Source of the DNA: Abditibacterium sp.
Lineage (GTDB): Bacteria > Armatimonadota > Abditibacteriia > Abditibacteriales > Abditibacteriaceae
Assembly (NCBI GenBank): GCA_965199495.1
Contig: CBDASK010000003.1
Location: forward strand, 3,648,001 to 3,712,000
Direction: 5' to 3'
DNA: 64,000 nt
A model generated the notes under the pieces. That model was given only the letters and a program-made list of their open reading frames with translations. It did not search any database and had not been told where the DNA came from. Every line of letters starts with the position of its first letter. Within the stretch, counting starts at the first letter, position 1. The position numbers and the translations under genes were made by a program. Shown here piece by piece: positions 1,088 to 63,192 of this stretch.

Positions 1088-2554
1088 CTACCGTTTCAAC
1101 CCTCCAAACGTCCCAAACTTCTCGTCCCATTTCGCCTTTTCTTTCGCTTGCGGCTCGAACGTTTGGCTTGGAAACGAAGCCCGCACGACTTCGCGAATCT
1201 GCGCCAGATCGCGAATTTCTCCGCTCGCCATCGCCTGAATTAATACGTTGCCCGCCGCCGTGGCTTCTATCGGCCCGGCGATGACCGGCTTGCCAATGCA
1301 ATTCGCCGTCAGTTGCGATAACAACTCATTTTGCGTGCCGCCTCCGACGATATACAACGCGTCGAGCGGGCCGCGCAATTCTTCCAATCGCTCGAACGTC
1401 CAACGATATTTGAGCGCCAGTGAATCCAGACAGCAACGCACCAACTCGCCCGGCGATTGTGGCGAGGTTTGCCCGCTTTCGCGGCAAACTTCGCGAATCG
1501 TCGTCGGCATATCGAGCGGCGCGGCGAAACGCGCGTCGTCGGGTTCGATGAACGGGCCGTCCGCAACTTCGCTGGCCATTTGCGTCATCGTCGCGTAATC
1601 AATTGGGTTTCCGGCGCGCTCGAAACTGCGGCGACACTCCTGCACCAACCACAAACCGGCGATATTTTTCAAAAACCGAATCGTGCCCGCGACGCCGCCT
1701 TCGTTGGTAAAACCTAACTCAAAGGCGCGCTCGCTGAGCAACGGCTGTTCCAATTCGACGCCCATCAAACTCCAGGTGCCGCTCGACAAATAAGCCGCGT
1801 TTTCGCCCGGCGCAAACGGCACGGCGGCGATGGCGCTGGCCGTATCATGTCCGGCGGGCGCGATAATCGGCGTCTCTTTCTTTAACCCAATGCGAGCAGC
1901 CACGGCGGGACGTAGCGTGCCCAGTTTAGTGCCGGGCAAAACCAAATCGCACAAAATCGAAGCGGGCAAATCGAATTGGCGCAACAAATCTTCGTCATAT
2001 AAGCGCGCCTTCGCGTCCAATAACTGCGAAGTCGAGGCGATGGAATATTCGTTTTTCTTGGCGCCGCACAGCCAGAAGTGCAGCAAATCCGGCATCCACA
2101 ATAGCGTTTTGGCAATCGGCAGTTGCGGCGAATCGGCTTTCATCGCGAGCAGTTGGTAAAGCGTGTTGAACGGCAAAAACTGCAAACCGGTGCGCGCGTA
2201 AATCTCCGATTTCGGCATCGTCTGCGTCGCGATTTCCAGATACGGCGCATGGCGCGCATCGCGATAATGAACCGGATTGCCGAGCAGTTCATCGCGCGCA
2301 TCGAGCAGACCAAAGTCCACGCCCCAAGTATCTACGCCGATGCCAGATACGTCGCCCTGAACCTTCGATAAACCGTCACAAATATCGTTCCACAGGCGCA
2401 AAACGTCCCAATACATCGCATCGCCAGTGCGCGCGGGCAAGTTGGGAAAACGGTGGGCGACATCCAATTTCAAGGCCTCGCCATCGAAGCGACCTTCGAC
2501 GACGCGACCCGATTCGGCGCCCAGATCAACGGCGCAATAGAGCAGAGAAGACAC
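1088..2554 (-). CDS. rhaB: Rhamnulokinase (FGGY carbohydrate kinase)
   Basis: AVDLGAESGRV, GIGVDTWGVDFGLLD, YLSSGTWSLMG, GFTNEGG, VGGGTQN, GPIEATAAGN motifs. Confidence 0.9.
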   Translation of the reverse strand: MSSLLYCAVDLGAESGRVVEGRFDGEALKLDVAHRFPNLPARTGDAMYWDVLRLWNDICDGLSKVQGDVSGIGVDTWGVDFGLLDARDELLGNPVHYRDARHAPYLEIATQTMPKSEIYARTGLQFLPFNTLYQLLAMKADSPQLPIAKTLLWMPDLLHFWLCGAKKNEYSIASTSQLLDAKARLYDEDLLRQFDLPASILCDLVLPGTKLGTLRPAVAARIGLKKETPIIAPAGHDTASAIAAVPFAPGENAAYLSSGTWSLMGVELEQPLLSERAFELGFTNEGGVAGTIRFLKNIAGLWLVQECRRSFERAGNPIDYATMTQMASEVADGPFIEPDDARFAAPLDMPTTIREVCRESGQTSPQSPGELVRCCLDSLALKYRWTFERLEELRGPLDALYIVGGGTQNELLSQLTANCIGKPVIAGPIEATAAGNVLIQAMASGEIRDLAQIREVVRASFPSQTFEPQAKEKAKWDEKFGTFGGLKR

Positions 2555-2561
2555 TCCTTAG

Positions 2562-2699: not shown

Positions 2700-3713
2700 A
2701 TGCTAATTTTGGGAATCGAAACCAGTTGCGACGAAACTTCGGTCGCTTTGTTAGAAAGCGGCGACGGAAATCGGTTGGAAATTCGCGCGAATTTGATCGC
2801 CTCGCAGATCGAGGCGCACAGTTTGTTTGGCGGTGTCGTGCCCGAAATCGCCTCGCGCAAACATTTGGAAGCGCTCAATCCATTGTTGGAAATGTGCTGG
2901 CAGGAAACCAGCGTCGCGCTGACCGATTTGGACTTGATTTGCGTGACGCGCGGCCCCGGTTTGGCGGGCGCGCTGTTGGTCGGCGTCGCGGGCGGCAAGG
3001 CGTTGAGTTATGCGACGCGCGTGCCGTGCGTCGGCGTCAATCACGTCGAGGGACACATCAATTCGCTGTTTCTGGCCAATCCCGAATTAAGTTTGCCGAT
3101 GTTAGTTACAGTCGTTTCGGGCGGCCACACCGATTTGATTTTGATGCGCGACTTCGGCGAATACGAGCGTTTGGGCCACACGCGCGATGACGCCGTTGGC
3201 GAGGCATTCGATAAAGTCGGGCGCGCCATCGGTTTGCCGTTGCCGGGCGGCCCGAATTTGGAACGTGCCGCACGCGCGGGCAACGCGAAAGCGTTCGATT
3301 TCAAGGCGTCTAACATGGCGCCATCGTTCGATTTTTCGTATTCGGGCTTGAAAACGGCGGCTTCGCAAGCGTTCGTCAAATATCCCGACCGCGTCCAGGA
3401 CATCGCGGCGGCGTTTCAAAAGTCGGCGATTCGGCAACTTCGCAAACAAATCGAACGCGCTTTGGACGAATTTTCGCCCAAAACTCTGGGCGTGTGCGGC
3501 GGCGTGGCTGCCAACGGCGCCCTGCGCGAAGCGTTGGCGAAAGTCTGCGCGGAGAAATCAATCGCGTTCGTGGTGCCCGAACCGATTTTATGCACCGACA
3601 ACGCCGCGATGATCGCCGCCGCCGGATATTTTCGCGCGCGCCAGAACGGTTTTCCCGCGTTCGATGTGGCGGATTTGGGTTTTGAGGCGCAATCGGTGTG
3701 GCCCGTCGGTTGA
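2700..3713 (+). CDS. tsaD: tRNA N6-adenosine threonylcarbamoyltransferase
   Basis: ILGIETSCDET, GGVVPEIASRKH, NHVEGH, VSGGHT, DDAVGEAFDK, CTDNAAMIA. Confidence 0.97.
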   Translation: MLILGIETSCDETSVALLESGDGNRLEIRANLIASQIEAHSLFGGVVPEIASRKHLEALNPLLEMCWQETSVALTDLDLICVTRGPGLAGALLVGVAGGKALSYATRVPCVGVNHVEGHINSLFLANPELSLPMLVTVVSGGHTDLILMRDFGEYERLGHTRDDAVGEAFDKVGRAIGLPLPGGPNLERAARAGNAKAFDFKASNMAPSFDFSYSGLKTAASQAFVKYPDRVQDIAAAFQKSAIRQLRKQIERALDEFSPKTLGVCGGVAANGALREALAKVCAEKSIAFVVPEPILCTDNAAMIAAAGYFRARQNGFPAFDVADLGFEAQSVWPVG

Positions 3714-3730
3714 ATTGTGGCGCGACAAAG

Positions 3731-5908
3731 CTACTTCTCCACCCGAACAGCCACGCCGCCTTGCACCCACACGACCTGCTCGCCCACGCTGAGCCACTGC
3801 GCGACATTTTGATCGTTTAGCAGCGCGAAATATTCGTCTGATCCGAATTTAATCGTTTTCGGATTGGCAAATTTCGCCGCGTCGAACGCGCTGTCCGTCC
3901 ACACGCCGTCGCGCAAAACGAAGGTTTTGCCGCCCGCGATTTTGGTATCGGCGCTGGCAATTGGCGCGGCGTAACCTTGCTGCAATTGCTTTTGCGCCTG
4001 CGAAGCCACGACCGCTCCGGCGCCGGTAACGGCGTTATAATTGGCGCCGCCCGCCGCGCGCAAATTGATTCCATCGGCTTCTCGGCTGCGAAATACTCCG
4101 CCGATCATCGGAACATCGCCCAACATCGGCACTCGCCCGCCGTTTCCAATTACGCGGCGTGGGTTTTCGTCTTCGGTAATCAGCGCCGCCGTGAGCGGCG
4201 TGACGACGCCATATTTTTTGCTGATGTCGAGGATTTCGTCGCGCACTTCGCCCGCGATGGGGCGCCCGGCCCGGCGCGCGTCTTCGATGAGAAAACCGAC
4301 TTTGCGCGTCGCCCACAAACGCGGCAATTCGTCGCCGCCCGCGCTGATGCCACCTTCAAAAGTGCGCGCTTTGCCGCCGATGGTGCCGCTTAAACTGGCG
4401 GTTTTTGGTATGCCTTTATAGCGGCCCATCACGATCATCTGGCCGCCGCGAAACAGGTCGGGCAAGTGGCGCGGATAAACATCATAAACCTCCAGACCGT
4501 TGAAATTGAGCTTTAAATCAGTCAAAACCGGATAGGCGATTTTCTCATAAAGCGCGCCGACTTTGGTTTCGATGTCCTCTTTGGGCAACACGTAATCGGC
4601 GTCGCCGCCGTTTTCTGAAGCCAAACCGTCGAGCAAGCGCGTGTTCACATCGAAGCCCACGCCAAACGTCCAGATGCGCGCTTTGGTGTCGTTCTCTTTT
4701 TGCGCGTCATTCAGCAATTCTTCCACGCGCGTTTCGCCGACAGTCGGCAAACCATCAGTCAGAAAAACGACTTGTTTGGGCCGCGCTTTGTCATCGGATT
4801 TCTCGTCGAGCGCTTTATTCAACGCCGCCTCGATATTGGTGCCGCCAACCGCTTTGATGTCGGCGATAAAAGCGCGCGCGGCGTCCAAATTGCCTTTAGT
4901 CGCGGGCGTCAAACCATCGCGAAACGGTTTGACATCCGAGGCGAACGTCACGATATTAAAGCGATCTTCCGCGCGCAAACTCGACAGCAACGTGAGCAAG
5001 GCGCGGCGGGCCTGTTCGATTTTTTCGTTGTCGTTCATCGAGCCGGACGTATCGAAGACGAAGGTCACGTCTTTGGCTTCGATGGGCGCTTCGTCCGTGC
5101 GCGCGTCGGGCGCGGCTAATAACATAAAAAAGCCGTCGGTTTCGGTCGGACTTTGATAGGTCAACATTTGCAAATCAACGGCTTTATCGCCGCGCGTCCA
5201 CAACAGCGAAAAATCGCGGTCGGCGGAAGAAAATTCGCCGGTCACGCGCGTTTGGTCGCCGCTCCGCACCGTTTCAATTGGATGCGACGGCGACACAACC
5301 GCGCGCACATCGCGATTTTTGAAAGTGACATCAAGGGTCGCCGCAACGTCGGTTTGGGCGCCGGGTGTGCGCAACGGCAAGTTAAAGCGGTTGCCAGAGA
5401 GCGGTTGCGAATAGGTCAATTCGACTTCGACCTGGCCGTTGGCGGGCACGGGGAAAATTTTGGCGCGCACCAAGTCGCGTCCGACGAATTCTAAAATCGC
5501 CGGGTCGCGCATTTGGCGCACGATGCCGGTATAAATTTCGCGCGCTTTTTCGGCGGACAAAATCTCGGCGGCGATCTTTTTGCCGCCCAAAGTCACTGCC
5601 AAATCCGAAATCGCCGCGCCCGGCGGCACGCTCCACAAATAGGTGCCCTCGATTTGCCGATTTTGCGGATTGAGAAACGTCTGCGTCAGCTTAACGCGCG
5701 CGCTGGCCTCGCCGATTTCGACGCTGGCCGCTTGCTTTTGCAACTGCAACTCGTCGGTCGCGGGTTGCGGAATCGGGCGAGGAAACGGCGGGCGCGGCGG
5801 AAACGGGCGTGGCGGGCGCACCGGCACGATTTGCGCGTGTGCAAACGGGACAAAAATCGCCAGACCGCACGCGGTGGCTATCAGCAGGGAACGAGGGGAA
5901 ATTTTCAT
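3731..5908 (-). CDS. Secreted VIT + vWA domain protein (inter-alpha-trypsin inhibitor-like)
   Basis: Signal peptide, VIT region (QTFLNPQNRQIEGTY...RDPAILE), vWA MIDAS motifs VFDTSGSM and FLTDG. Confidence 0.9.
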   Translation of the reverse strand: MKISPRSLLIATACGLAIFVPFAHAQIVPVRPPRPFPPRPPFPRPIPQPATDELQLQKQAASVEIGEASARVKLTQTFLNPQNRQIEGTYLWSVPPGAAISDLAVTLGGKKIAAEILSAEKAREIYTGIVRQMRDPAILEFVGRDLVRAKIFPVPANGQVEVELTYSQPLSGNRFNLPLRTPGAQTDVAATLDVTFKNRDVRAVVSPSHPIETVRSGDQTRVTGEFSSADRDFSLLWTRGDKAVDLQMLTYQSPTETDGFFMLLAAPDARTDEAPIEAKDVTFVFDTSGSMNDNEKIEQARRALLTLLSSLRAEDRFNIVTFASDVKPFRDGLTPATKGNLDAARAFIADIKAVGGTNIEAALNKALDEKSDDKARPKQVVFLTDGLPTVGETRVEELLNDAQKENDTKARIWTFGVGFDVNTRLLDGLASENGGDADYVLPKEDIETKVGALYEKIAYPVLTDLKLNFNGLEVYDVYPRHLPDLFRGGQMIVMGRYKGIPKTASLSGTIGGKARTFEGGISAGGDELPRLWATRKVGFLIEDARRAGRPIAGEVRDEILDISKKYGVVTPLTAALITEDENPRRVIGNGGRVPMLGDVPMIGGVFRSREADGINLRAAGGANYNAVTGAGAVVASQAQKQLQQGYAAPIASADTKIAGGKTFVLRDGVWTDSAFDAAKFANPKTIKFGSDEYFALLNDQNVAQWLSVGEQVVWVQGGVAVRVEK

Positions 5909-7443
5909 GGCACCGGCAGTTCAAATGTCGAACTACTGATTGGATTGTCGTCGCCGCCAATTTGTTCCAAACGCGCGTGCAACGTTTGTCCGCTTTTGCC
6001 GTTCGCCTTTTCGATTGTCGTCTGCGAAAGCTCGACTTGCGCGGGCAGGGCGTTCAATTCGCCGCGCCAAATCGTCTGCTCGCCGCCCGGCGTTAGCAAA
6101 ATCAGGCGCGCTTTTCCAATCGGCTGGGCGACGCCAAACGTCAAAATTAGCGGGAATTTCGACGGTGGTGCGAGGGCAAAATTTCCTCCTGCACTGGAGC
6201 GTTGGTTATCGCCGCGTTGGGTTTGCGCGCGCGGCGAAAGCGTCGCTTTGACGGCTCCGCCCGGCCATTGGGCCGAAGTCGCAGACGCGGCGAGCGTCAT
6301 ATCGGCGGCGCCCGCCGTCTCACTGGCGCGATCCGTCTGCGCCGCAGACGGCGCGATTCTCCCCATCGCTCTGTTCGGTTTGACGGCTTTGGGCGCTTGG
6401 AACGCCGCATCGTTTCTGGCGCTCGAAGCGGCACCATTGGCAAAACTCGTTGACGGTGCTGGCGCCGCCATCGGCGGAACTATTGGTGCGGCGGGAATTG
6501 TCGCGCGCGACACCGAATTTTCCTGCGAAAACGAGTTATCTTCTGCCGATTTGGGCGCGGGTTTTTCCACTTTACCGGGCGCGTTTTGCGCGGGACTATC
6601 GTTTTTCGTTGCGCCATCGCTCGGTTTTGTGGAGCCGAATTTGGCTTTGGAACGCCCGTTGTTTTCCCGTTCAAACTTTGCTTTTGGCTCCGGTTCGAAA
6701 TCGCCTGGCGCGACAGCACGCGACTTCGACTTGTTGATTTGCGGTGGCGACAACGGGGCGGGCGCCACTGGAAACGCGAACGACGGTTGCGCGCCGCCGT
6801 TGGCGTCCGCACGCGGTTTTGTCGAAATGGATGGCGCGGGCAATGAGGGCAATGGTGCCATCGCTTTGGGCGCTTGGCCATTTACGTCAACGCCGGGCGC
6901 GGATTGGACGGGCGCGGGTTTTTGCGGCGCGGTTTTGGGCGGCGGCGCGCCATCGGACGCGCGCGGTTGTGGCGCTTTCGGCCCGGTCGCTTTATCTTGA
7001 ATCGCGCTGTCAGGTTTGGCAGATTGAGCAGACCCGTCATGTTTGGCGGCGCCCGCAGCCATTTCGGTTTCGCTGACGGGCGCCGAGGGCGAATAAACGT
7101 CGTTTTGCAGCGACGGCCTTCCCAGCAACATCAAGCCGATGGCGCCGACGACGGCGGCGCCGCCCCACGCGAGTTGGCTGGTTTTGAGCGGAAACGCGAA
7201 CGGCAAAACAAACGCGCGCGGCGGTCTTTCGCGCAATTGCGCGCGCACATTGGCGCGAACGCTGACCGGAACGGGCGCGGCGGGCAATGCAGCCACGGCG
7301 GCTTGAATCTGTTTTAATTCGCGCAGTTCGCGCGCGCACTGGGCGCACTCGCGCAGATGCGACTCAACGCGGGCGCGCTCGTTGGCATCGAGCGCGTCGG
7401 AAAGCAAATCGGGCAATTGCTCGCGTTGGTGGGGAGAATTCAT
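5905..7443 (-). CDS. Zinc-finger (ZAS, zf-HC2) anti-sigma factor with TM helix and long Pro/Ala-rich extracytoplasmic region
   Basis: HLRECAQC (HxxxCxxC) motif, single TM, directly downstream of an ECF sigma gene; stop overlaps the start of the VIT gene. Confidence 0.85.
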   Translation of the reverse strand: MNSPHQREQLPDLLSDALDANERARVESHLRECAQCARELRELKQIQAAVAALPAAPVPVSVRANVRAQLRERPPRAFVLPFAFPLKTSQLAWGGAAVVGAIGLMLLGRPSLQNDVYSPSAPVSETEMAAGAAKHDGSAQSAKPDSAIQDKATGPKAPQPRASDGAPPPKTAPQKPAPVQSAPGVDVNGQAPKAMAPLPSLPAPSISTKPRADANGGAQPSFAFPVAPAPLSPPQINKSKSRAVAPGDFEPEPKAKFERENNGRSKAKFGSTKPSDGATKNDSPAQNAPGKVEKPAPKSAEDNSFSQENSVSRATIPAAPIVPPMAAPAPSTSFANGAASSARNDAAFQAPKAVKPNRAMGRIAPSAAQTDRASETAGAADMTLAASATSAQWPGGAVKATLSPRAQTQRGDNQRSSAGGNFALAPPSKFPLILTFGVAQPIGKARLILLTPGGEQTIWRGELNALPAQVELSQTTIEKANGKSGQTLHARLEQIGGDDNPISSSTFELPVP

Positions 7444-7487
7444 GGGGCAAAAGTCGGGCGAAATGGAACGACGCCGGATTGACTGGG

Positions 7488-8090
7488 TTAGATGTCAAAA
7501 AGTTCCCGGTCGGCGCCCAGAGCGTCTCGCAGAGCGGCGCGCGCGCGGCTCAGGCGGCTTTTGACGGTGCCCGTCGGCACCTCCAAAATGGCGGCGCAAT
7601 CTTCGTAGGAGCGGCCCTGCAAATCGAACAGAATCAGCGCCGTGCGATAGTTTTCGGGCACTTTGGCGAGCGCGATGCGCACCGCAATTTGCCGTTCTCG
7701 CCGCGCGATTTCTTCGGGCGCCGGGCGCGCGGTTTCGTCCTGCGGGTCGAATTCCGGGCCGTCGTCCCATTCCATCGAAGAGAAATCGCGCGGACGTTTG
7801 CGCTTTTTCTTCAGAGCATCGCGCGCCACGTTGACCGCGATGCGCGAAACCCACGCGCCAAACCCGCAGTCGCCCCTGAACTTTTTCAGGTGCCGATACG
7901 CCCGAATAAACGCGTCCTGCGCCGCATCGGCAGCTTCGTCGCGGTCGGCCAAAATCCACAGACAGAGGTTGAAAACTTTGCTTTCGTGCCGCGCCATCAA
8001 CGCATCGAACGCATCCACATCGCCGCCGCGCGCGCGCGCAACGTCCGCTTCGTCGCGCTGGGCTTCGAGGTCGAGTGGATGTTCGATCAT
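7488..8090 (-). CDS. ECF sigma-70 factor (SigW/RpoE-like)
   Basis: DAFDALMARHE, AADAAQDAFIRAY, FGAWVSRIAVN, SYEDCAAILEVPTGTVKSRLSRAR. Start set at ATG 8090 because the ORF-track extension lies in a repeat. Confidence 0.92.
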   Translation of the reverse strand: MIEHPLDLEAQRDEADVARARGGDVDAFDALMARHESKVFNLCLWILADRDEAADAAQDAFIRAYRHLKKFRGDCGFGAWVSRIAVNVARDALKKKRKRPRDFSSMEWDDGPEFDPQDETARPAPEEIARRERQIAVRIALAKVPENYRTALILFDLQGRSYEDCAAILEVPTGTVKSRLSRARAALRDALGADRELFDI

Positions 8091-8139
8091 GTTCGGATGG
8101 CGGATAAGAGATTTCAGATTTCGGATATGGCCGCATCTG

Positions 8140-8266
8140 TCATTCTGAGCGCAGTGAGGCACGAACGAAGTCGAAGAATCCATAACTCTCGATGATGTAA
8201 AAGCGAAGTCCACGCGCAATCAATGGATTCTTCGACTTCGTTCGTGCCTCACTGCGCTCAGAATGA
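8140..8266. repeat. MITE/REPIN-like inverted repeat, family B (TCATTCTGAGC...GAAGAATCC)
   Basis: 44-bp perfect arms at 8140-8183 and 8223-8266. Confidence 0.85.
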
Positions 8267-8280
8267 TACGTAGTTATGAA

Positions 8281-10365: not shown

Positions 10366-10579
10366 CTCAAAAAATTCTACCTTCTTTAGAACAATTTGCC
10401 TAATTATCGCGCGATTTACGCGAGACAACCCGTCAAGAAAACCCGCGCCCCCGAAAAATTACTTACACTGTGGCAACGCAAACGAGGCGCCCTTCGGACT
10501 GTTCTCGTTTACTTTATAGCAAATGTTAGGCGCTCGCCGGGAGTTCTTGCCCGCGCGGTGGCTGCTCTTCTTTTTACCA

Positions 10580-11290
10580 ATGAATCCCTGGCACGACATT
10601 GATCCGCGCAACGCCTCTTCCGACTTGCTGGACTGCGTTATCGAGATTCCGCGCGGCGGGCGTCTCAAATACGAACTCGACAAAACTTCCGGTCTGCTCC
10701 GTCTGGATCGCGTGTTGTTTTCGGCGGTGTTTTACCCGGCCAATTACGGTTTCATTCCGCGCACCTACTGCGACGACAAAGACCCACTCGATATTTTGGT
10801 TTTGGGCCAAGAACCGGTGATGCCGCTGTGCATCCTAACCGCGCGCCCCATCGGCGTAATGCAGATGGTTGATCAGGACGAGGAAGACGACAAAATCATC
10901 GCGGTTCACGAACACGATCCGGCCTATCATCACCTGCGCGATATTTCGGAATTGCCCGATCACACGTTGCAGGAGTTGCAGCGGTTTTTCGAGGATTACA
11001 AAGCGCTCGAACTGAAAAGCGTGCGCATCGAGCGCTTCAAAAATCGCGAGGGCGCTCAAAAAATTATTGATAAAGCGTTCGAGCTTTACGAAGAAACGTT
11101 CAACTTCACGCCCGACCCGCTGGCGCCCGCGCCCGTCGAAGAACCGAAACCCAAACCCGGCGCGACGCCTTCGATGAAAGCGCGTTTGCAAGCGGCCCAG
11201 CGCGCTGCCAATGTGCTTTCGGCGGGCGACGCGCAGCAACGCGATCACGCCGCGCGCGAAGGTAAAGGTGGCGACGAAGTGGACGATTGA
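10580..11290 (+). CDS. ppa: Family I inorganic pyrophosphatase with C-terminal extension
   Basis: [40 protein letters not shown]. Confidence 0.95.
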
Positions 11291-11331
11291 GGCATGGATT
11301 GCAATGGTTCAGTTCCGTCGAAATTTGTCCT

Positions 11332-11415
11332 GTTCTGCGGGGCTGACGCCCTCTTCCAATCGGCGGACTTTCAGAAAATTTTACTGATTGGAAGAGGGCG
11401 TCAGCCCCGCAGAAC
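11332..11415. repeat. Inverted repeat, family C (GCGGGGCTGACGCCCTCTTCCAATC)
   Basis: 30-bp perfect arms at 11332-11361 and 11386-11415. Confidence 0.85.
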
Positions 11416-12103: not shown

Positions 12104-12187
12104 CGCACGCTTTGACGCTTTAACGCGGGCAAGAGCCGACATCGAAACGCGCGAAAGCGTTAAAATATGGCGGGCAAAAACTTTTTT

Positions 12188-52133: not shown

Positions 52134-52149
52134 GTGTGTTGATGCCGTT

Positions 52150-53850: not shown

Positions 53851-53900
53851 AGAAGACTTTCGATGTTTTGCGGGAAATGGCGCGCGAAAAAGATAAATTA

Positions 53901-54009
53901 ATGCGATATAAAATCGCAGCAAAGGAAGTTGTCGGCCTTCGCCGACACAGACAAATGACACCTGTCGGCGAAGGCCGACAACTTCCTTTGCTGCGATTTT
54001 ATATCGCAT
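53901..54009. repeat. Inverted repeat, family I, with internal TGTCGGCCTTCGCCGACA palindrome
   Basis: 47-bp perfect arms at 53901-53947 and 53963-54009. Confidence 0.85.
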
Positions 54010-54016
54010 CGTCAAA

Positions 54017-57000
54017 CTAATCCACGCCCTGCTCGAACAGCGATTTGATTTTCTCGTCGGTGAGCGGGCTGCGCCACACTGTCATATCGGTGACGGCGCC
54101 GGGGAAGATTTTGCTTTTTGACCACGGATCGAGCGGTTTGATGCGCACCACGGCTTCGTCATCGACGAAATCAAGCGGCGCTTTGCCGATGGGCTGGCCG
54201 TTTTTATACAGGCGCACATCGGTGCCATCATAGGTCGCGGTGATCATCTGCCAGACGCCGACATCGAGTTTGACATTGCTATCGAGGTCGCGACCGGAAC
54301 CCCAGAAGTGAATGCCTCTGGCGAACTTGGTCAGGTAACGGCCTTTGCCCTCTTTGTCGGTGATGTCGCCAAAACCGGCGATAACGGTTTCGTCCTCCGG
54401 TTGCGCGTCGGGTTTGCACCAAACGTTGATGCTCCACGGGTCTTTGGCGCCGACCGGCAAACCGGGCAACTTCACTTCGCGTGTTTTTTCTGCTGGATCG
54501 GGCGTGCGTCCCGAATTGAACAGTTGCGCGCCCGGTACTTTCAAAGTCGCGACTTGAATCAGGTTGCCGTTGGTCGAGGCGTCTTTCACGCCTTTCACCG
54601 TCAGCTCGGCGACCTCTTCCAATCTCAATCCGCGATTCGTCGTTAAAGTCACGTTCATGCCGTCGGCGCTCACGACGGCTTTTTGCGCCGTAATTCCGTC
54701 GTTCAACTGGTAATTGGAAGCCATCGCGGCGCTCGCTTTGTCGAGCGGCTCCGAGAAGCCCAACTCGATGACGGGCGCAACCGGATCGCCCAGAGCCTTA
54801 ACGATGCGCGGCCCGGTTTGGTCGTTGATGACAAACTTCGCCGTCGTCACGCCGGTGGCTTTGCCGTCGGGCGTGAACTGCGTGGCTTTGATCGTTGCGC
54901 TTTGATAAATCGGGATTTCGCCCTTATAAACCGGCGAATTTATGGTCGGATCGGAGCCGTCGAGCGTGTAGCGCAAGTTGTTCTGATCCCAGTAAAGCGG
55001 ATGACTGAGCGTCGCCATCACGGTATCGGTCGCGTTGCGATTGGCCGGAAAAACTTCGGGCGACGAGGACTGGAATTTATGGGTTTCCAGCGTGTCGTGA
55101 AGCGGCGCGAGCGGCGTGGCTGGTGTTTCGCCCTTGGCCACCGAGACCGCGAAAATCTTAATGCGTGGATCGTTGGGAAGGGTCAGCGTCGTCGCGCCAG
55201 CGGGAATATCGAAGCTCTTCTGAAAGATATACGAATAATCGTAATGCGTATCGGCTGTCGGCATATGGCGGTGCGAGGCATACCAAGCCACGTCGCCTTC
55301 CTTGACGTAACCGGGTAGCAGACCCACGAACGGGTTGTTCCAATTATAGGTCAGTTCGGGCACCACGCCGCCCCACAAACGCGTATCGTATTGGCCGACG
55401 AAGCCACTCCAATTGTCAATTGTCGCGCTCACTTTGTGGGCACCGACGCCGAATTGTCCACGCACGTCGCCCGCCGAAGCCGCCGCCAAAACGTGAACGC
55501 GCGTGTAACCTTTGGGCAGCGAAATGGTCTGACCGCGCGCCGTCATCAAGTTTTTGGCGCCATCGGTCGTTGGCCCCATTTTATAGTTAATACCGTCTTT
55601 TTGTAGCGTCGCCGGAATTTCCTCGGCGGCGAAAGTCATACCTTTGCCATCGAAATTGCCGTCGCTGCGCTTGGCTCTGGATGAGATGCCATCCAAATCG
55701 TAGGAGAGCGCAACCGGCACGCTCTGAACGGGCGCGACTTTGGTCGGCGCCGCCGCCAACTTGAGCGCGAATGCGCGCAGGCTAAACGCGCCAACCTCGG
55801 TTTCCAACGCGCCATTTTTCACCGTCGCGCTTCCAATGGTGCGTTCCTGTCCGTCCACTTCGCGCGCCGCCACGATGTTCGATCCCATGCGCAAACGCAC
55901 ATTTTTGGCGGGCGCGCCGATCAGCTCGCGGAAACGCACCACGATTTCGTCGGAATCCTCGGCCTTTTTGATGGCGGTGATTTCGACCTGCTTGCTGTTG
56001 GTGCGCGCCAGCGAGAACGATTTGCCCAATTTTCCGTCGTGTTTGGCAACGCCAAACGCGCGTAACGGCTGGTTCAGGCGCTTGGCCTGCCACGGCACAT
56101 CGCCATCGCGCCAATCGCCCGCGTGCGGCGCGATATTATACAAAAACTCGTGCTTGCCAAAGTCCTGATGCGCCTGATCTTGGTAGCCGCCGCGCACGCC
56201 CGGCGTATAAAGCAGCGTCAGGCGAATCAGGTCGTCGGTCGGTTTGTCCGATCCGAATTTGCAATCGTTCAAAATCGCCGCGCCCGACTTGCCATTCGTG
56301 CCAGTCAGATCGAACCATTGATGCTGCGGCACTTCGTATTTCTTCGGGTCGTTGTTGCCGCGCATGATGGCGCCAACCTGCAAATCGTAGGTCGCTTTGG
56401 GGTTGCCGTGAGCCATCGGGAACTCGGCTTTGAGCGCGACCTGTTGCGACTGCCAGTCAATATTATTTTTGACGCCGACACTTTCGCCCGCCGCGCCGCT
56501 CGCGAGGGAAATCGTCTGCACGAACTTGGAGCCACGCGCATTGCGCGTCACTTCGATGGCGACGCGCAAGGGGCCGTTTTCGACCACGCGAATCTGCGCC
56601 GGGCCGTCCACATAAGCAATCGGCGCTTTCTTCGCATCGTCCCAGTCCATGTTCCACGCCGGAAACGCCGACGGATTATGATAAACAAACGCCAATCGCG
56701 CCGGAGCTTTCAACGTTTCGGTGTTGTTTTTCTTATCGAAAACCGACGAAATATCGCCCGCCGCGTTAATCGTCACGCGAAAGCGCGCGTTCTCCAAAGT
56801 GCGATTTTGCTCCGAAACTTTCAACTCGCCCATCTTCATCGCGGGCGCCGTGGCTGATGTGCGCGCGTCGAAGGTTTTGAAACCGTTGGGCGCGACGCTG
56901 GCCAGAAAAATAATCTTCGCCGAGTTGCCCGTGCGCGCGATAATCTGCGTCGGCACGGCGGTTCCATCGGGCGCAAACACCGTCACGCTGTTGGTGCCGG

Positions 57001-58351
57001 GCGCCATTGCAATCGTCGCCTCGACGCAATCCTCGCGTTCGATGGAAAGCGGATTGTAAACCACCAGACTTTGGCCCTGCGCGCGCGTATCCAGCGCCGC
57101 CGAAACCACGCCGACGCTGTCCTGCGCGACATCGCCGAACATTTTCATCGCCAAAATCTCGTCGTTATAGGAGAAATCGTAGGCGCGCGGCAGGCTGGTG
57201 CCGGGCAAAATGTCGTGCATCTGCGAACCCAGCAGAATATCCCACGCCTGATAAAGCGGCTGCGACGGGTAGCTCTTGCCACCCAGCCACGTCGCCGCGA
57301 CGCTGGCGCGTTCGGCGGTATCGGCCAGCAGTTCGCCCTTGCGGTTCCAACGCTTCATGTGCGCTTCCGAAGTGATGCTGCCCGACGAATGCTGCGTCAG
57401 CAGCAGCTCGCCATTGTAGGTCGGCAACTTGGCGATCTGTTCGGGCCTCATGTCGTTGAACAGTTGGTCGGCGCGCGACGAAACGACTTTGAGCGGGCCA
57501 GTTCCGGCGACGCTTTTCTCCAGGTTAATCACCGATTTCTCGCTGGGCGCGCCGCCGCGATCTCCGGTGCCATAATAGTGGTAATCCACCGCCGCTCCCG
57601 ACTGCGCGCCGTTGTTCTGGGCGCGCTTGAGCCAACTCGAATTCTGGCTCAAATCGTCGTCAATACCGCCGCCGTAAGACCCCGGATCGAGTGCCGCAAC
57701 AACGCCCTTGCCGTTTGGCCCAACCCAATTGCCGACTTTAAACGGAATGCCGATGGCCGAACCCCAGGTCAACTTCTGAGTCGAGAAACCCTTGATGCCT
57801 TCATGCTCCAAAATCGTCGGCAACGCGTAGGGAAAACCGAAGCAATCGGGCAGCATGAACTCGTCGCTGGCGATGCCGAACTCCTTGCGAAAAAAGTGAT
57901 TGCCATAAAGCGTCTGGCGCACCAACGCCTCGGCGGAAGGCACGTTGGCGTCGCCTTCATCCACCGAACTGCCGCAGGGAAACCACTGACCTCTGGCGAT
58001 GTAGCCCTTCAATTTTTCGTAGTCCGCCGGATAATACTCGCGCATCATCTCGTAGCGGCGCGAACCGGAAAAGTTGAAGACGTAATCGGGATACTTGTCC
58101 ATCAACTTGAAGTTATCCTGCAAAGTGTTGGGCACATATTCGCGCACGCTCTGCGGATAGGCCCAGCGCCACTGCGTATCGAGATGCGCGTAGCCGACCA
58201 CATAAAGCGTGGGTTTGGTGTTGTCCCGTGGTTTGGGCGTCTTATTAATGGCGACGGGTTGCGCACCCGCAGGAATGGCAAGCGCCAGCATTGGCGCCGC
58301 CGCCAGCAGCATTAGCAGGTTAGGACGAACACAAGAGGAGCGAGAAATCAT
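54017..58351 (-). CDS. Secreted GH38 alpha-mannosidase with C-terminal chitobiase/Ig-like and LamG domains
   Basis: YAHLDTQWRW, MLPDCFGF, YGTGDRGG, QMHDILPGTS; YTLDGSDPT; WQMITATYDGTDVRLYKNG. Confidence 0.93.
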   Translation of the reverse strand: MISRSSCVRPNLLMLLAAAPMLALAIPAGAQPVAINKTPKPRDNTKPTLYVVGYAHLDTQWRWAYPQSVREYVPNTLQDNFKLMDKYPDYVFNFSGSRRYEMMREYYPADYEKLKGYIARGQWFPCGSSVDEGDANVPSAEALVRQTLYGNHFFRKEFGIASDEFMLPDCFGFPYALPTILEHEGIKGFSTQKLTWGSAIGIPFKVGNWVGPNGKGVVAALDPGSYGGGIDDDLSQNSSWLKRAQNNGAQSGAAVDYHYYGTGDRGGAPSEKSVINLEKSVAGTGPLKVVSSRADQLFNDMRPEQIAKLPTYNGELLLTQHSSGSITSEAHMKRWNRKGELLADTAERASVAATWLGGKSYPSQPLYQAWDILLGSQMHDILPGTSLPRAYDFSYNDEILAMKMFGDVAQDSVGVVSAALDTRAQGQSLVVYNPLSIEREDCVEATIAMAPGTNSVTVFAPDGTAVPTQIIARTGNSAKIIFLASVAPNGFKTFDARTSATAPAMKMGELKVSEQNRTLENARFRVTINAAGDISSVFDKKNNTETLKAPARLAFVYHNPSAFPAWNMDWDDAKKAPIAYVDGPAQIRVVENGPLRVAIEVTRNARGSKFVQTISLASGAAGESVGVKNNIDWQSQQVALKAEFPMAHGNPKATYDLQVGAIMRGNNDPKKYEVPQHQWFDLTGTNGKSGAAILNDCKFGSDKPTDDLIRLTLLYTPGVRGGYQDQAHQDFGKHEFLYNIAPHAGDWRDGDVPWQAKRLNQPLRAFGVAKHDGKLGKSFSLARTNSKQVEITAIKKAEDSDEIVVRFRELIGAPAKNVRLRMGSNIVAAREVDGQERTIGSATVKNGALETEVGAFSLRAFALKLAAAPTKVAPVQSVPVALSYDLDGISSRAKRSDGNFDGKGMTFAAEEIPATLQKDGINYKMGPTTDGAKNLMTARGQTISLPKGYTRVHVLAAASAGDVRGQFGVGAHKVSATIDNWSGFVGQYDTRLWGGVVPELTYNWNNPFVGLLPGYVKEGDVAWYASHRHMPTADTHYDYSYIFQKSFDIPAGATTLTLPNDPRIKIFAVSVAKGETPATPLAPLHDTLETHKFQSSSPEVFPANRNATDTVMATLSHPLYWDQNNLRYTLDGSDPTINSPVYKGEIPIYQSATIKATQFTPDGKATGVTTAKFVINDQTGPRIVKALGDPVAPVIELGFSEPLDKASAAMASNYQLNDGITAQKAVVSADGMNVTLTTNRGLRLEEVAELTVKGVKDASTNGNLIQVATLKVPGAQLFNSGRTPDPAEKTREVKLPGLPVGAKDPWSINVWCKPDAQPEDETVIAGFGDITDKEGKGRYLTKFARGIHFWGSGRDLDSNVKLDVGVWQMITATYDGTDVRLYKNGQPIGKAPLDFVDDEAVVRIKPLDPWSKSKIFPGAVTDMTVWRSPLTDEKIKSLFEQGVD

Positions 58352-58681
58352 GATGGGAGAAAACTGGGAAATGTCAAGCCGATGTCTGGTAAAAACGGAA
58401 ATTAAAGCGAAAAACCACGTTTTTCCGTTTGACATTATACAACTATTTGCCCCTAAATTCAAGCGCTCTAACTATACTGGAATACTATATAAAGAAAAAT
58501 ATTCGATTGTTAGTTCGTGCCAAGAAATAATGCTATTTTAAATATAAAAAACGTTTATGGAGAATGATTTATATAAATTTGAGGTATTTTTTAACAAAAT
58601 TAAATGACTATTTCATCAAATCATTCGGCGCAACAAAAGCCAGCATGGGTGCGTCCAATGCAGAAAAAGTTTAAGCCTCCG

Positions 58682-59923
58682 ATGAAATTGATTCTTGGCG
58701 CGTTATGCGCTTTAATTTTGTGTTCGCGAGTGAACGCTCACCCCGAAATGGACGGGCGTTTGACTGTGGGTTATCAGGGCTGGTTCGCGCCCACGCGTTT
58801 GGGCGACGGCGCGCGTTGGGTGCATTATGGCGCCGATGGCACGTTCGCGCCGGGCGGCAACATCGCCGTCGAAATGTGGCCCGATGTTTCCGAGTTGCCC
58901 GCCGATGAAAAAGTGCCGACCGATTTTCGCGACGCCGACGGCAGCGTCGCTCCCGTTTTCGATGCACAAAACGCGAATACGGTTAATCGTCATTTCGCGT
59001 GGATGAAAAATTATGGCATCGGCGGCGCGTGGCTGCAACGCTTCGCCGGGCCGACGCGCGACGAACGCGTTCGCGTTTCGATGGACAAAGTTTTGGATAA
59101 CGTGCGCGCCGCCTCGCGCCAGAACGAGGTGCCGTGGGCTTTGATGGTTGATTTGTCAGGCGTCAAAGCCGACGATATTTTTCCGACCGTCGCGGCGGAC
59201 TGGAAACGTTTGGTAGATTCCCATATTCGCGACGATCCGAACTACTTGTTCCACGGGAACAAACCCGCCGTGGCTTTGTGGGGCATCGGTTTTAGTGACG
59301 ACCGGCCCGCGCCCGCCGCGTATATGGAATTAATAAATTGGCTCAAAAACGATCCGGTTTACGGCGGCAATGCTGTTGTTTTGGGCGTGCCGTTCTACTG
59401 GCGCACCGGCACGCGCGACGCCGTAGCCACGCCGGACTTGAAAACCGTCATCGAAGCCGCCGACGTAATTTTTCCGTGGCCGGTTGGCCGCTACAATTCG
59501 CCCGACGCCGCGCGTGAAGTCGCGCAAAACGAGCGCGCGCCCGACATCGCGTGGGCGCGCGAACACGACAAAGCGTATATGCCGGGCATTTTTCCCGGCT
59601 TCAGTTGGCATAACTTGATGAAATCGCGCGGCAAAGACGCCGTAATGGACGAAATTCCGCGTCTGAGCGGCGAGTTTTTGTGGGCGCAAGCCGTCAGCGC
59701 CAAACGCGCGGGTGCGACCATGCTTTATGTCGCGATGTTCGACGAAATTGACGAAGGCACCGCGATTTTCAAAGTCTCCAACGACGCGCCGGTTGGCGAC
59801 ACTCCATTTCTCACGCTCCACGGTTTGCCGTCCGATCATTATTTGTGGTTGACCGGTCAAATCGCCCGTATGCTGCGCGGCGAAATTCCCGCGACCGACG
59901 CGATGCCAATGCGCAAACCATGA
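58682..59923 (+). CDS. Secreted GH71/99-like glycoside hydrolase (xylosidase-like)
   Basis: GYQGWF, EMWPDVSE, HFAWMKNYGIGGAWLQRF, PGFSWHN, YVAMFDEIDEGTAIFK. Confidence 0.8.
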   Translation: MKLILGALCALILCSRVNAHPEMDGRLTVGYQGWFAPTRLGDGARWVHYGADGTFAPGGNIAVEMWPDVSELPADEKVPTDFRDADGSVAPVFDAQNANTVNRHFAWMKNYGIGGAWLQRFAGPTRDERVRVSMDKVLDNVRAASRQNEVPWALMVDLSGVKADDIFPTVAADWKRLVDSHIRDDPNYLFHGNKPAVALWGIGFSDDRPAPAAYMELINWLKNDPVYGGNAVVLGVPFYWRTGTRDAVATPDLKTVIEAADVIFPWPVGRYNSPDAAREVAQNERAPDIAWAREHDKAYMPGIFPGFSWHNLMKSRGKDAVMDEIPRLSGEFLWAQAVSAKRAGATMLYVAMFDEIDEGTAIFKVSNDAPVGDTPFLTLHGLPSDHYLWLTGQIARMLRGEIPATDAMPMRKP

Positions 59924-62900
59924 AAATTCTCGCGCTTTTAAGCCTTTTACTTCTGCCGATGAGCGCGCGCGCCGCCACGACTTTTACACGCGATTTCGCC
60001 GCCGTTGAAGGAATTGTCACTGCGCCCGAAATGCCGTTGCGTCAGGAAATCAGCCTTAACGGGCGCTGGCAATTTCAGCCGATTGTTGTTCCGCCAGATT
60101 TCGCCCGCGATACCGGCGCCGCGCCCGCTTTGCCCGCTCCCAATCCGGCGAAATGGGACGCGACGCCGCTCAAAGTGCCTTCGCCGTGGAACGTCAATAC
60201 GTGGGGCAACGGGCGCGACGTGGGTGCAAATACGGCGCGGCCTTACTCCGCCGATTCGGTTTATTATCCGTCGTATCCGCGCGCGTGGGACGGCGCCGAA
60301 ATGGGTTGGCTGCGCCGCAGTTTTCGCGTGCCCGCCGATTGGGGCGCGCGCCGCGTGGTTTTGCATTTCGAGGGCGTCGCCGGTCAAGCGCAAATTTGGG
60401 TGAACGGGCGTAAAGTCGGCGAGCATTTCGATGAGTTTATGCCATTTGAATTCGATGTCACCGATCAAATCAAGCGCGATGGCGATAACGAATTGTTGGT
60501 CGGCGTGCGCAAAAGTTCGCTATTCGACATCGTTTCGCCCGATTATCCAGCGAACCAAAAGCGGACTTATCCCAACGGATCGAACATGGATGATTTGGTC
60601 GGCATCTGGAACGATGTTTCGCTGCTGGGACTGCCCGCGCTGCGCGTCAGCGATGTTTTCGTTCAGCCGCTGGTCAGTCAAAACGAGTTGCGTGCGCAAA
60701 TTACAATTCGCAACGACGGCGCGAGCGAACAAACGGTTTCGGTTGGCGCGACAGTTTCGCCGTGGCGCAATTTGGCCGGGCAAAGCGTTTTGGATGCGCC
60801 CGAACCCAAATGGCGTTTGGACGCGCCCATTCTAACTTTGAGCGCGCAAAGAACCACGATTGCGCCGGGAAAAAACGCGACGATTGTGTTGCGCCAAAAA
60901 TTAACCGACCAACTCAAATTATGGTCTCTCGACGCGCCGAATCTTTATGGCTTGGTTGCAAACGTCACGCGCGGCGCGACGATTGTGGACAAGAAATACA
61001 CGCGCTTTGGTTGGCGCGAGTGGACGATAAACGGGCGCGAATTGCGTTTGAACGGCGCGAAAATTCAGCTTAACGGCGATTTGTTGCATCCGTTTGGGCC
61101 GTTCATCGGTTCGCGGCGCTACGCATGGGCGTGGATGAAAATGGTGAAAGATGTCGGCGGCAACGCGATTCGTCCTCATGCGCAGCCACGTCCGCGCTTT
61201 TACTTGGATTTGGCCGACGAAATGGGCGTCGCGGTTTTGGACGAAGCGGCGGTTTTCGGTTCGAGCATTTCGCTCAACTTCAAGTCTCCGCAAACGTGGG
61301 AGCGTTTGGAAAATCACGTTGACGATTTGGTGAAGCGCGACCGCAATCACGCCAGCGTTTTTGGTTGGAGTCCAGCCAACGAAATGTTCGCGCAATTCCT
61401 GCGCGTTTCGCCCGCCGACAAAGCGCGACAATTGCCCAAACTGCAAGCCCTCGCGCTACGCCCGCGCGCGCTCGACCCGACGCGCCCGTGGATTTCCGCC
61501 GACGGTGACGAAGATTTGGGCGGCGTTTTGCCGACGTGGAATCGTCATTTTGGCATCGGCGTGCCCGATTTGCCCGACGTAGATAAACCCTTGATGGTGG
61601 GCGAGCAGGGCGGCACTTATTACGCTTCACCGCCGCATTTGGAACCGCTCGCGGGCGAAGTCGTTTATCGCGATACTGCCGGGCGCAATCAGGGTTTGGC
61701 CTTCGATTTATATCGGATGCTGACCAGCGCGGCGCACGAAAAACTATCGTATTTTTCGCCCTCGGAATTGGCGTGGTTTGGCCTCGAACCCTTGCCGTTG
61801 GGCACCCAAACCGACGAACGCGTGCCCAATTTGAGCGACGGCGTGTTTTTCGGGCCATACGTCGAAGGCCGCGCCGGAGTGCAGCCCGAACGTTTGCCGC
61901 CTTATTCGATGACGCTCAATCCCGGCTTCGATGCGGCGTTGCCGCTTTACCGATCGCTCCCGATGTTCGAGGCGATGCGCGATGGGTTGCGCGGAAACGC
62001 GAACAGCAAATGGGCCAAATTGCCCGTCGTCGCGCCGCGCGTGCAAAGCGCGCCGAGCAACGCAATCGAGCGCGTCGGTTTTGTCGGCCCGCGCGAGGGA
62101 GCTTTGTTCGCCGCTCTTTTCGCGATGGGCGTTCCGCTCGCGCAAACGCTCGATAATGCCGATTTGCTCATCGTGGATGGCGACAATGCGGGCGACGTGG
62201 CTGCAACGCAAGCCGCCATTGATGCGACGCTTCGGCGCGGGAAAATGGTGTGGATTATGGCGCGCGCAACCGGCGAAACGTTGCAATCGTTGCGTTTGCC
62301 GCCGCACCAAATCACAACGCGCCACGCGACTTCTCTCGTGCGCGGCGACGCAGACAAAGCGATTGACGGTTTCGGTCTGGGCGACCTCTATTTCGCTGAA
62401 GCCAGTGGCGACCGCGAAATTCAAAAAGTCGGTTTGCAAATCGCAACGGGACGCGTTTTGCTGCGCGCTGCCGATGTGGATTGGACTTTATGGAACGATC
62501 ACGGCGAAGTCGAGAAAAATAGCAACGTTTTGATTTACCAACATCTGCGTAAACCGGCGGGCGCGGCATTAATTGATGTGCCGCAAACCAAAGGCAAACT
62601 GTGGATTTCGACGCTCGATCCATCGTCCGATGCTCCGCAGATTCGCGCGTTTTGGCGGCAGTTAATGTCAAATGTCGGCGTGAAACTAAACGAGCCGCCG
62701 AGCGATATTCTGGTCGCTTCGGCGCGCAATGGCGCGGGCGCGACTTGGAGTTACACGTTTGATAAGCCCGCCGCCAATTGGTTTAAACCGAACTTTGATG
62801 ACGCGAACTGGAAAACCGGCGTCGCCGGTTTTGGCGGCGAAGTGCCGGGCGGAAATCCGCACACCGCGTGGAATACCAATAATATCTGGTTGCGCCGCGA

Positions 62901-63192
62901 ATTTGAAATTAAAGCAGTGCCGCGAACTCTCAATCTGGAAATTCATCACGATGAAGATGTCGAAGTTTTTCTCAATGGCACGCGCATTTTCGCCGAAACC
63001 GGACATTTGACGGCGTATAAATCGGTGCCGCTCGATGCAGCCACGTTGCAATTACTACGCGCCGGGCGCAACGTGCTGGCGGTTCATTGTCTGCAAACGG
63101 CGGGCGGCCAATATATAGATGTCGGTCTAACCAGTGCGGCGCCAGCTCCGATTCGCCCGCACGATTTGCTGTTGGACGGGCCGCTGCAATAG
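59920..63192 (+). CDS. Secreted GH2-family glycoside hydrolase with C-terminal carbohydrate-binding domain
   Basis: ISLNGRWQF, LHFEGVAG, RFGWRE, RDRNHASVFGWSPANE; ATGA coupling to the previous gene. Confidence 0.88.
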   Translation: MKILALLSLLLLPMSARAATTFTRDFAAVEGIVTAPEMPLRQEISLNGRWQFQPIVVPPDFARDTGAAPALPAPNPAKWDATPLKVPSPWNVNTWGNGRDVGANTARPYSADSVYYPSYPRAWDGAEMGWLRRSFRVPADWGARRVVLHFEGVAGQAQIWVNGRKVGEHFDEFMPFEFDVTDQIKRDGDNELLVGVRKSSLFDIVSPDYPANQKRTYPNGSNMDDLVGIWNDVSLLGLPALRVSDVFVQPLVSQNELRAQITIRNDGASEQTVSVGATVSPWRNLAGQSVLDAPEPKWRLDAPILTLSAQRTTIAPGKNATIVLRQKLTDQLKLWSLDAPNLYGLVANVTRGATIVDKKYTRFGWREWTINGRELRLNGAKIQLNGDLLHPFGPFIGSRRYAWAWMKMVKDVGGNAIRPHAQPRPRFYLDLADEMGVAVLDEAAVFGSSISLNFKSPQTWERLENHVDDLVKRDRNHASVFGWSPANEMFAQFLRVSPADKARQLPKLQALALRPRALDPTRPWISADGDEDLGGVLPTWNRHFGIGVPDLPDVDKPLMVGEQGGTYYASPPHLEPLAGEVVYRDTAGRNQGLAFDLYRMLTSAAHEKLSYFSPSELAWFGLEPLPLGTQTDERVPNLSDGVFFGPYVEGRAGVQPERLPPYSMTLNPGFDAALPLYRSLPMFEAMRDGLRGNANSKWAKLPVVAPRVQSAPSNAIERVGFVGPREGALFAALFAMGVPLAQTLDNADLLIVDGDNAGDVAATQAAIDATLRRGKMVWIMARATGETLQSLRLPPHQITTRHATSLVRGDADKAIDGFGLGDLYFAEASGDREIQKVGLQIATGRVLLRAADVDWTLWNDHGEVEKNSNVLIYQHLRKPAGAALIDVPQTKGKLWISTLDPSSDAPQIRAFWRQLMSNVGVKLNEPPSDILVASARNGAGATWSYTFDKPAANWFKPNFDDANWKTGVAGFGGEVPGGNPHTAWNTNNIWLRREFEIKAVPRTLNLEIHHDEDVEVFLNGTRIFAETGHLTAYKSVPLDAATLQLLRAGRNVLAVHCLQTAGGQYIDVGLTSAAPAPIRPHDLLLDGPLQ

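Follow-up and report, generated by a model that had tools for sequence, protein, structure and literature searches.

Introduction

Uptake sequences have been described for the Neisseriaceae and Pasteurellaceae, namely the DNA uptake sequence (DUS) and the uptake signal sequence (USS), and highly iterated palindromes, typified by HIP1, have been described for cyanobacteria. One proposal is that the action of DUS is not confined to a single step (PMC3630211), and an effect of HIP1 on transformation has been described (10.1101/2024.09.10.611283). Here, we analyse a 64-kb stretch of the chromosome of an Abditibacterium sp. (hereafter the window), in which the octamer CAGCCACG is strongly over-represented, and follow this word through the host genome (G000) and its relatives, two of which (G004 and G011) also carry it. 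We found no report of CAGCCACG or of uptake sequences in this phylum in the literature searched, which lacks most subscription papers and whose supplementary k-mer tables could still list it. The word is a real, selected and lineage-specific DNA signal. On balance, we read it as a putative self-DNA signal of natural transformation comparable to DUS and USS.

Results

Abundance of the word in the window and the genome

The window contains 44 exact copies of CAGCCACG, 26 on the + strand and 18 on the - strand. An earlier sequence-only reading of the window had counted about 43 by eye (26 and 17), and all 17 of the example coordinates that it listed are exact copies. In 100 dinucleotide shuffles of the window the mean was 2.28 copies and the largest count 6, such that 0/100 reached 44; the over-representation that this reading deduced from a chance estimate of 3-4 copies therefore stands, while the GC content it assumed, about 58%, is in fact 56.4%. 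Consistent with its claim of a near-total coding location, 43 of the 44 copies fall within coding sequences (CDS) by our own gene calls.

1897..63045, + strand: extent of the + copies of CAGCCACG, which start at 1897, 3748, 7290, 9807, 11749, 11764, 13556, 15135, 16387, 17545, 20454, 22005, 22690, 23487, 28585, 29368, 32978, 37135, 42469, 46686, 47550, 51245, 53031, 57284, 61183 and 63038
3503..62203, - strand: extent of the - copies of CAGCCACG, which start at 3503, 8572, 9439, 11807, 13995, 21993, 23610, 29846, 32778, 36044, 41169, 47053, 49463, 53071, 55115, 56849, 59028 and 62196
49463..49470, - strand: the sole copy in the window outside a called CDS

Across G000 there are 3,091 copies, of which 1,558 + 1,525 are on the 4.72-Mb contig (about 0.65 per kb) and 2 and 6 are on small contigs of 25 and 65 kb. 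The word ranks first among all 8-mers at Markov orders 2, 3 and 4, where 252, 237 and 436 copies are expected. Among the 3,898 genes predicted by our own gene caller, CDS hold 2,842 copies versus 268-298 in ten within-gene synonymous codon shuffles, an approximately 11-fold excess; four further synonymous shuffles gave an expectation of 259, with CAGCCACG again the first 8-mer. Intergenic DNA holds 236 copies versus 17 expected (approximately 14-fold), with the same flank preferences as in CDS, and the signal therefore resides in the DNA. The copies occupy all six frames, extending to the whole genome the use of different frames seen in the window, and 92% are single sites within genes with unrelated flanks. 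The suggestion that the word draws on uncommon codons also holds, as GCA and GCT account for 5.8% and 9.9% of Ala codons and CCA for 10% of Pro codons. Enrichment neither disappears under a codon- or dipeptide-preserving null (2,842 versus 259-298) nor is confined to the window, the two outcomes that the sequence-only reading had named as contrary to its proposal.

Anatomy, coding imprint and conservation of the word

The functional core of the word is AGCCAC, within a consensus of about (a/t)gCAGCCACGsCG whose flanks are graded and whose preferences extend to 11-16 bp. Variants at the first position of CAGCCACG stay enriched (2.2-3.4), as do some at the last position (1.0-2.2), whereas internal one-mismatch variants are mostly depleted (as low as 0.15, most 0.15-0.8). 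The word is non-palindromic and unbiased with respect to strand: the replichore split is 1,592:1,491 (51.6%). In the same replichore frame GGGCAGGG, which we take to be of the KOPS (FtsK-orienting polar sequence) type, splits 204:21.

In G000 the word encodes 39% of the AAT tripeptides and 49% of the QPR tripeptides, despite its use of the rare Ala codon GCA. Relative to motif-free kin, AAT is found at 1.07 versus 0.67 and VAA at 1.37 versus 0.93 per 1,000 residues (1.6- and 1.5-fold), while the reversed peptides of both are unchanged and AWL and QPR show little or no change. A tripeptide imprint on the proteome has been described for uptake sequences (PMC2817400). Orthologous sites were conserved in the comparison of G011 with G000, in which 53 of 79 sites are identical and fourfold third positions within the word are conserved at 171/198 versus 11,497/15,814 elsewhere (0.73; p 6e-6). 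In G004, silent sites within the word are not conserved relative to G000 (152/257 versus 0.68).

Spacing of the word depends on orientation

Same-orientation pairs of CAGCCACG at 30-500 bp number 138 in G000 versus 473 expected, while opposite pairs number 444 versus 473. At 500-1,000 bp the corresponding figures are 333 versus 504 and 532 versus 503, and at 9-30 bp they are 2 versus 21 and, for opposite (inverted) pairs, 77 versus 21. Permutation of the orientation labels gave 291 +/- 12 same-orientation pairs, compared with the 138 observed of 582. The effect persists within genes (same-orientation 17 versus 109 and 75 versus 193; opposite 325 versus 290), end-variant words are thinned only around perfect sites that share their orientation (0.5-0.6 versus 0.9), and five control 8-mers exhibited no consistent same-orientation deficit. 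We rejected a generic avoidance of close direct repeats, as direct pairs of non-motif 11-mers are enriched rather than depleted at 30-1,000 bp, a count that is inflated by repeats and the CRISPR array. Selection or drive acts on a polar DNA word that is present about once per strand per 3 kb and whose copies are redundant across about 1 kb. HIP1 papers describe a 10-90 kb periodicity (PMC4390886, PMC5861425); the spacing of CAGCCACG was examined to 40 kb in coarse bins.

For comparison, a USS pattern was scanned on metagenomes, with 75 of 119 stretches used; the filter kept 52 loci of at least 5 kb with more than 0.3 USS per kb, or 41 after removal of near-copies (597 kb, 444 sites). In successive distance bins up to 500 bp, same-orientation pairs were observed versus expected at 0/3.8, 2/11.7, 8/23.6 and 25/39.4, and opposite pairs at 30/3.8, 22/11.9, 14/25.0 and 46/39.9. 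Same-orientation pairs make up 35 of 117 at 30-500 bp (p 1.6e-5) and 33 of 93 above 100 bp (p 0.007). In these Pasteurellaceae-type loci (L181-L255), same-orientation copies keep apart below 500 bp and opposite ones do not. For Escherichia coli Chi, the first 100 + strand sites of 1,008 gave 8 same-orientation pairs versus 8.8 expected, and thus no deficit. As the spacing of CAGCCACG resembles the USS control and not the Chi control, the word behaves like USS and unlike Chi. Our literature search found no report on uptake sequences evenly spaced by same orientation. Karlin et al. (1996; cited in PMC1939737) reportedly found USS to be evenly spaced, and the strand-wise spacing of USS may already be in print.

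Close pairs and hairpins

Three groups of close copies lie in the window:

21986..22020, unstranded: close inverted pair (copies at 21993 and 22005), hairpin of -26.5 kcal/mol
11749..11814, unstranded: three-copy cluster, in which 11749/11764 is one of 2 same-orientation pairs below 30 bp chromosome-wide (21 expected)
53031..53078, unstranded: inverted pair, 40 bp apart, in a stretch without a match in five relatives

The first of these, one of the 77 inverted 9-30 bp pairs on the chromosome (21 expected), is located within the 3' end of an ankyrin-repeat gene, about 40 bp beyond the stop codon of a convergent UDP-galactopyranose mutase gene. In G004, 48 of 50 copies in inverted pairs are intergenic and 22 of 25 pairs follow a gene end; USS inverted pairs are likewise placed as terminators (PMC7811141). 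The paired copies of G004 form related hairpin elements of 70-150 bp that are 71-99% alike pairwise and resemble a repetitive extragenic palindromic (REP) family, and the long consensus of this genome, GACACCAGCCACGTYC, also occurs singly in CDS (75 copies).

Several further repeats were noted. Short dispersed repeats at window positions 8138-8266, 11325-11416 and 16034-16192, similar to REP or miniature inverted-repeat transposable elements, have many copies in G004 and G011. The word GTAGAGACAC has 161 copies in G000, and a CRISPR array of about 131 repeats is found at G000 C3:2766483-2775006. Positions 63255-64000 of the window hold the end of a 3,295-aa gene that extends past it.

Distribution in the family

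Threonyl-tRNA synthetase places the host in the Abditibacteriaceae, at 76% identity to Abditibacterium utsteinense. Enrichment of CAGCCACG was found only in G000, G004 and G011, that is in 3 of 41 relatives and 3 of 251 genomes of the phylum. These carriers form one clade, with support of 100/100, in an RpoB tree that took in 12 of 13 genus genomes; identity is 96-97% within the clade and about 80% outside it. The named isolate A. utsteinense probably falls outside this clade. G004 uses the longer dialect GACACCAGCCACGTYC, which occurs as single copies in genes and as hairpins between genes, and a viral scan with this dialect returned 25 loci, none of which was clearly motif-rich. No equivalent word was identified in 100-kb samples of four motif-free genus members or in 7-54 kb of six more, although such small samples can miss a sparse word.

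Elsewhere in the family other words are found. Over 27 family genomes, AGTACT counts are 2,813-4,733 in 6 and 1-285 in the other 21. The six carry palindromes with an AGTACT core at about one per kb, namely GCAAGTACTTGC (G014), CAAAGTACTTTG (G018), TCGAGTACTCGA (G020, G024 and G042) and CGAGTACTCG (G022), and G017 carries a 24-bp palindrome with a half-site about every kb (loci L111-L115). These palindromes are more often intergenic than the word of G000 (22/29 in G014; 94/113 in G017), and those of G020 repel one another, with 3 pairs versus 19 expected below 250 bp. The motif label must change at least three times when mapped onto a tree of PilC from 18 genomes. The family palindromes and CAGCCACG may share a common mechanism.

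Most of the family avoid AGTACT almost wholly. In G005 a single short contig (C98) holds 10 of the 18 AGTACT sites, which suggests a piece from a palindrome-bearing relative, and loci L141, L142 and L334 of G015 may contain a weak iterated palindrome, TCGATATCGA. Contig C3 of G000 exhibits extreme avoidance of certain words, with ratios to expectation of 0.04 for CTAG, 0.11 for GTAC, 0.03 for GGACC and 0.01-0.05 for many hexamers; the avoidance of palindromes extends to the whole family, and some asymmetric words are avoided in G000 too.

Competence, recombination and methyltransferase genes

The sequence-only reading had called for a search for competence genes, and these are present: G000 encodes ComEC, ComEA, DprA, ComM, RecA and secretins, together with a type IV pilus operon in which pilB-pilT-pilC-pilD precede the genes of four pilins and two PilX-like tip proteins of 1,300 aa. 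All of these genes also occur in motif-free kin, and the competence genes therefore do not discriminate. An alignment of ComEA (18 sequences from 27 loci tried) revealed no motif-linked difference. The tip protein has a variable middle, which tends to be more basic in carriers (best copy, -1 to +8) than in the remaining genomes (-10 to +3). For the second tip protein, X2, a single-sequence model has a mean predicted local distance difference test score (pLDDT) of 32, while an alignment-based model reaches 85 with a pilin-like start, and structure comparison (VIA) gave N-terminal pilin-like matches with Z 6.6 and 5.9. Foldseek returned only weak tailspike matches for X2, and no sequence match was found in the PDB. 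X2 is 88% identical between G000 and G011, a level comparable to the 84% found within the motif-free kin. The tip protein as receptor is a lead and not a finding. In the tandem tip genes at G000 C3:872853-880963 (L296), one paralogue diverges rapidly, being 28-66% identical to its G011 counterpart beyond the first 100 residues, and the other is 83-99% identical.

The suggested search for AddAB or RecBCD found no AddA or RecB in the three carriers, which disfavours Chi. Each of G000, G004 and G011 has one UvrD_C match, of PcrA size, and an AddA query had no match in these genomes nor in 14 others of the family, while AddA is present in 10/10 motif-free genus members. An AddAB-like gene pair (L070:4065-10544 in G009, and kin) is present in the two motif-free clades of the genus and was not found in the rest of the family. 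A Dna2-like protein of 1,421 aa (G000 C3:4111365-4115630; L063:6365-10630), comprising a PD-(D/E)xK nuclease and an SF1 helicase, is patchily distributed in the phylum. Its gene is present in all three carriers, split in G011, and was rejected as the reader, as it also occurs in motif-free G016, G038 and G039 and was not found in G014, G018, G020, G022 and G024.

No methyltransferase for an asymmetric site could be identified in intact form across G000, G004 and G011, two of which are incomplete genomes (G011 87%), such that one may have been missed. Family-wide orphan and genus-wide methyltransferases do not track the motif, and enzymes of the IIG, ISP and MmeI types have an intact form common to at most two carriers; both sets are improbable as readers. 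In G004 (L368) and G011 (L374, L365), a C5 methyltransferase gene separates the pieces of a type ISP gene whose G000 copy (C3:368041-371163) is whole.

Discussion

The sequence-only reading had proposed an uptake, recombination or nucleoid-protein signal. Our data support this proposal and, given the lack of strand polarity and the USS-like spacing, an uptake-type signal fits best, with transformation being the function that we infer. A surface or periplasmic receptor would prefer word-bearing DNA, and word-bearing fragments would recombine more often, such that the word would spread through genes by drive where the changes are silent or mild. Judging from the spacing, the reading step would be polar: a neighbour at up to about 1 kb would be made redundant only by a copy in the same orientation. 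This would be expected of a word that counts on the single strand entering the cell, or that gives import or strand exchange its direction. In one study the uptake of USS fragments was independent of orientation (PMC1939737), which fits if each strand has an orientation of its own that serves it. A change of receptor would yield dialects such as GACACCAGCCACGTYC of G004 and, speculatively, the receptor could be X2, the second of the PilX-like tip proteins with which the pilus operon ends.

Several observations weigh against this interpretation. The competence genes are widespread in kin that include motif-free genomes (ComEC in 40/41, ComEA in 25/27, prepilin peptidase in 25/27), pilins 1-4 of carriers and motif-free genomes show no charge difference, and no pilin tracks the motif. 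For the tip protein the charge ranges overlap, the compared region was chosen afterwards and the kin are non-independent, and the likeness of X2 to Thermus ComZ (Z 5.3, rmsd 15) is within noise. The other words of the family are palindromes, and 84 of 107 close inverted pairs in G000 lie within genes, both unlike DUS and USS. Nor is the USS control identical to CAGCCACG, as it recovers by 500 bp and its opposite pairs at 100-250 bp are low too (14 versus 25).

Depletion from accessory DNA is mixed. The two small contigs (0.08-0.09 copies per kb) and three hand-picked islands (0.19-0.35) are sparse, while window positions 52.2-60 kb, approximately 8 kb without homologues in five relatives, hold 6 copies, a normal density that counts against the preferred reading and also against the earlier argument that the longest gaps of the window are accessory blocks. 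These gaps are ordinary, as 150 of 3,082 genome gaps are at least 4 kb. The supposed accessory gap at 23.6-28.6 kb overlaps a region (23.3-26.7 kb) also present in G004, and the supposed ilvD island is core, with ilvD at 86-90% identity in two motif relatives and 75-77% in three others.

The alternative that best survives, although we consider it unlikely, is a strand-specific signal acting inside the cell, at which a protein of repair, recombination or chromosome handling would load, nick or pause and which would be required about once per kb per strand, with the sister-genus palindromes being the same signal read by a dimer, as for HIP1. The polar redundancy over about 1 kb, the repulsion of weak variants by same-orientation perfect sites only and the similar repulsion among G020 palindromes all fit such a signal, as do the competence genes that do not track the motif and the AddA query that had no match in all ten motif-bearing genomes. 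However, six motif-free or unclear family genomes lack an AddA match too, no candidate gene tracks the motif (the Dna2-like gene is in motif-free G016 and was not found in five motif-bearing genomes), and true USS shows the same spacing.

An improbable explanation is a methyltransferase-directed repair ratchet, after Elhai's model for HIP, in which a one-strand AGCCAC methyltransferase and mismatch repair turn near-sites into sites until spacing saturates. MutS and MutL are present, G000 has many type IIG and ISP methyltransferases, internal one-mismatch variants are depleted and the repulsion range of about 1 kb matches that cited for methyl-directed repair (PMC4390886). Against this, the only candidate in all three carriers is one type ISP gene that is fragmented in two, the shared beta-class enzymes occur in motif-free kin as well, and the flank preferences extend 11-16 bp.

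Slightly less probable still is that a REP-like dispersed hairpin or a nucleoid-protein site seeded or explains the word. This would suit the hairpin elements of G004 and the mostly intergenic words of G014 and G017, but it suits neither the single, genic, all-frame copies with unrelated flanks that predominate in G000 nor the single CDS copies of the G004 long consensus, and a symmetric binder would not produce orientation-specific spacing.

A Chi site for a helicase-nuclease is very improbable, and largely refuted for RecBCD and AddAB. The word is a non-palindromic, GC-rich octamer of polar action whose minus strand loosely resembles E. coli Chi, yet a single PcrA-sized UvrD_C match per carrier contrasts with the AddA-like gene of the motif-free genus members, and the balance between replichores and a spacing unlike that of Chi lead us to reject Chi and KOPS alike. 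Finally, although many palindromes are strongly avoided in the genome and the peptides A-A-T and V-A-A are common, an origin of the word as a by-product of codon, peptide, Markov or restriction-avoidance bias is refuted by the synonymous shuffles, in which alternatives for the same peptides are depleted, by Markov orders 2-4, by intergenic DNA with the same enrichment and flanks, by the absence of the word from kin of like GC and by generic 11-mer direct pairs that are not depleted at short range.

One small family with both kinds of word, and close kin without any, is a natural experiment in which comparative genomics could identify the reader and address whether a common cause underlies HIP1 and DUS. 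Being asymmetric, CAGCCACG reveals what a palindrome hides, namely that only same-orientation copies are redundant; that this holds for USS too points to a polar step in transformation. A doubtful extension would make the Abditibacteriaceae a third bacterial family that takes up its own DNA by sequence, through one system that is read strand by strand and switches between asymmetric words of the DUS kind and palindromes of the HIP1 kind. On that view, DUS/USS and HIP1 would represent two forms of a single drive linked to transformation, and the PilX/ComZ-like tip protein would be a receptor of a new class that recognises specific DNA sequences. On the practical side, efforts to transform these bacteria may require the words, which can also be used as binning or host tags.

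Comparison with known systems

In every genomic feature examined the word behaves as DUS and USS do, apart from terminator pairing and accessory depletion, for both of which the results are mixed. As described for those sequences (PMC3630211, PMC2817400, PMC7811141), it is non-palindromic, occurs at about 0.65 per kb without strand bias and in all frames, and shares with them a proteome imprint, an excess of close inverted pairs, clade-specific dialects and a same-orientation deficit, which for USS was measured here. The likeness is genomic only: the word is unrelated, belongs to another phylum, is patchy within one genus and has palindromic family kin, there are few terminator pairs in G000, and no ComP- or PpdA-like receptor was identified.

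With HIP1 and the alternate HIPs of cyanobacteria, as described in PMC4390886 and PMC5861425, it shares being an octamer at hundreds per Mb, silent-site conservation, and lineage alternates and extensions. The AGTACT-core palindromes of the six family genomes are of the HIP1-like kind. CAGCCACG is asymmetric, whereas the words of G014, G017, G018, G020, G022, G024 and G042 are palindromes, and no matching methyltransferase was found in the carriers; the word is not HIP1 in the strict sense. Nor is it Chi: like the Chi of RecBCD and AddAB it is an asymmetric GC-rich octamer with polarity, but no RecB or AddA was found in the three genomes, replichore skew is absent, the word is three times denser and its spacing differs.

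The pilus operon resembles the pilA1-4/comZ locus of Thermus thermophilus (PMC6561018), in which four pilin-like genes precede a large pilin-like tip protein, and differs from it in that the G000 tip protein has 1,300 aa and is duplicated, with a ComZ match within noise. DNA uptake in Thermus is described as having no apparent sequence preference (PMC6561018). If CAGCCACG is a transformation signal of the DUS/USS type, as seems somewhat more likely than not, the Abditibacteriaceae would be a third family with such signals.

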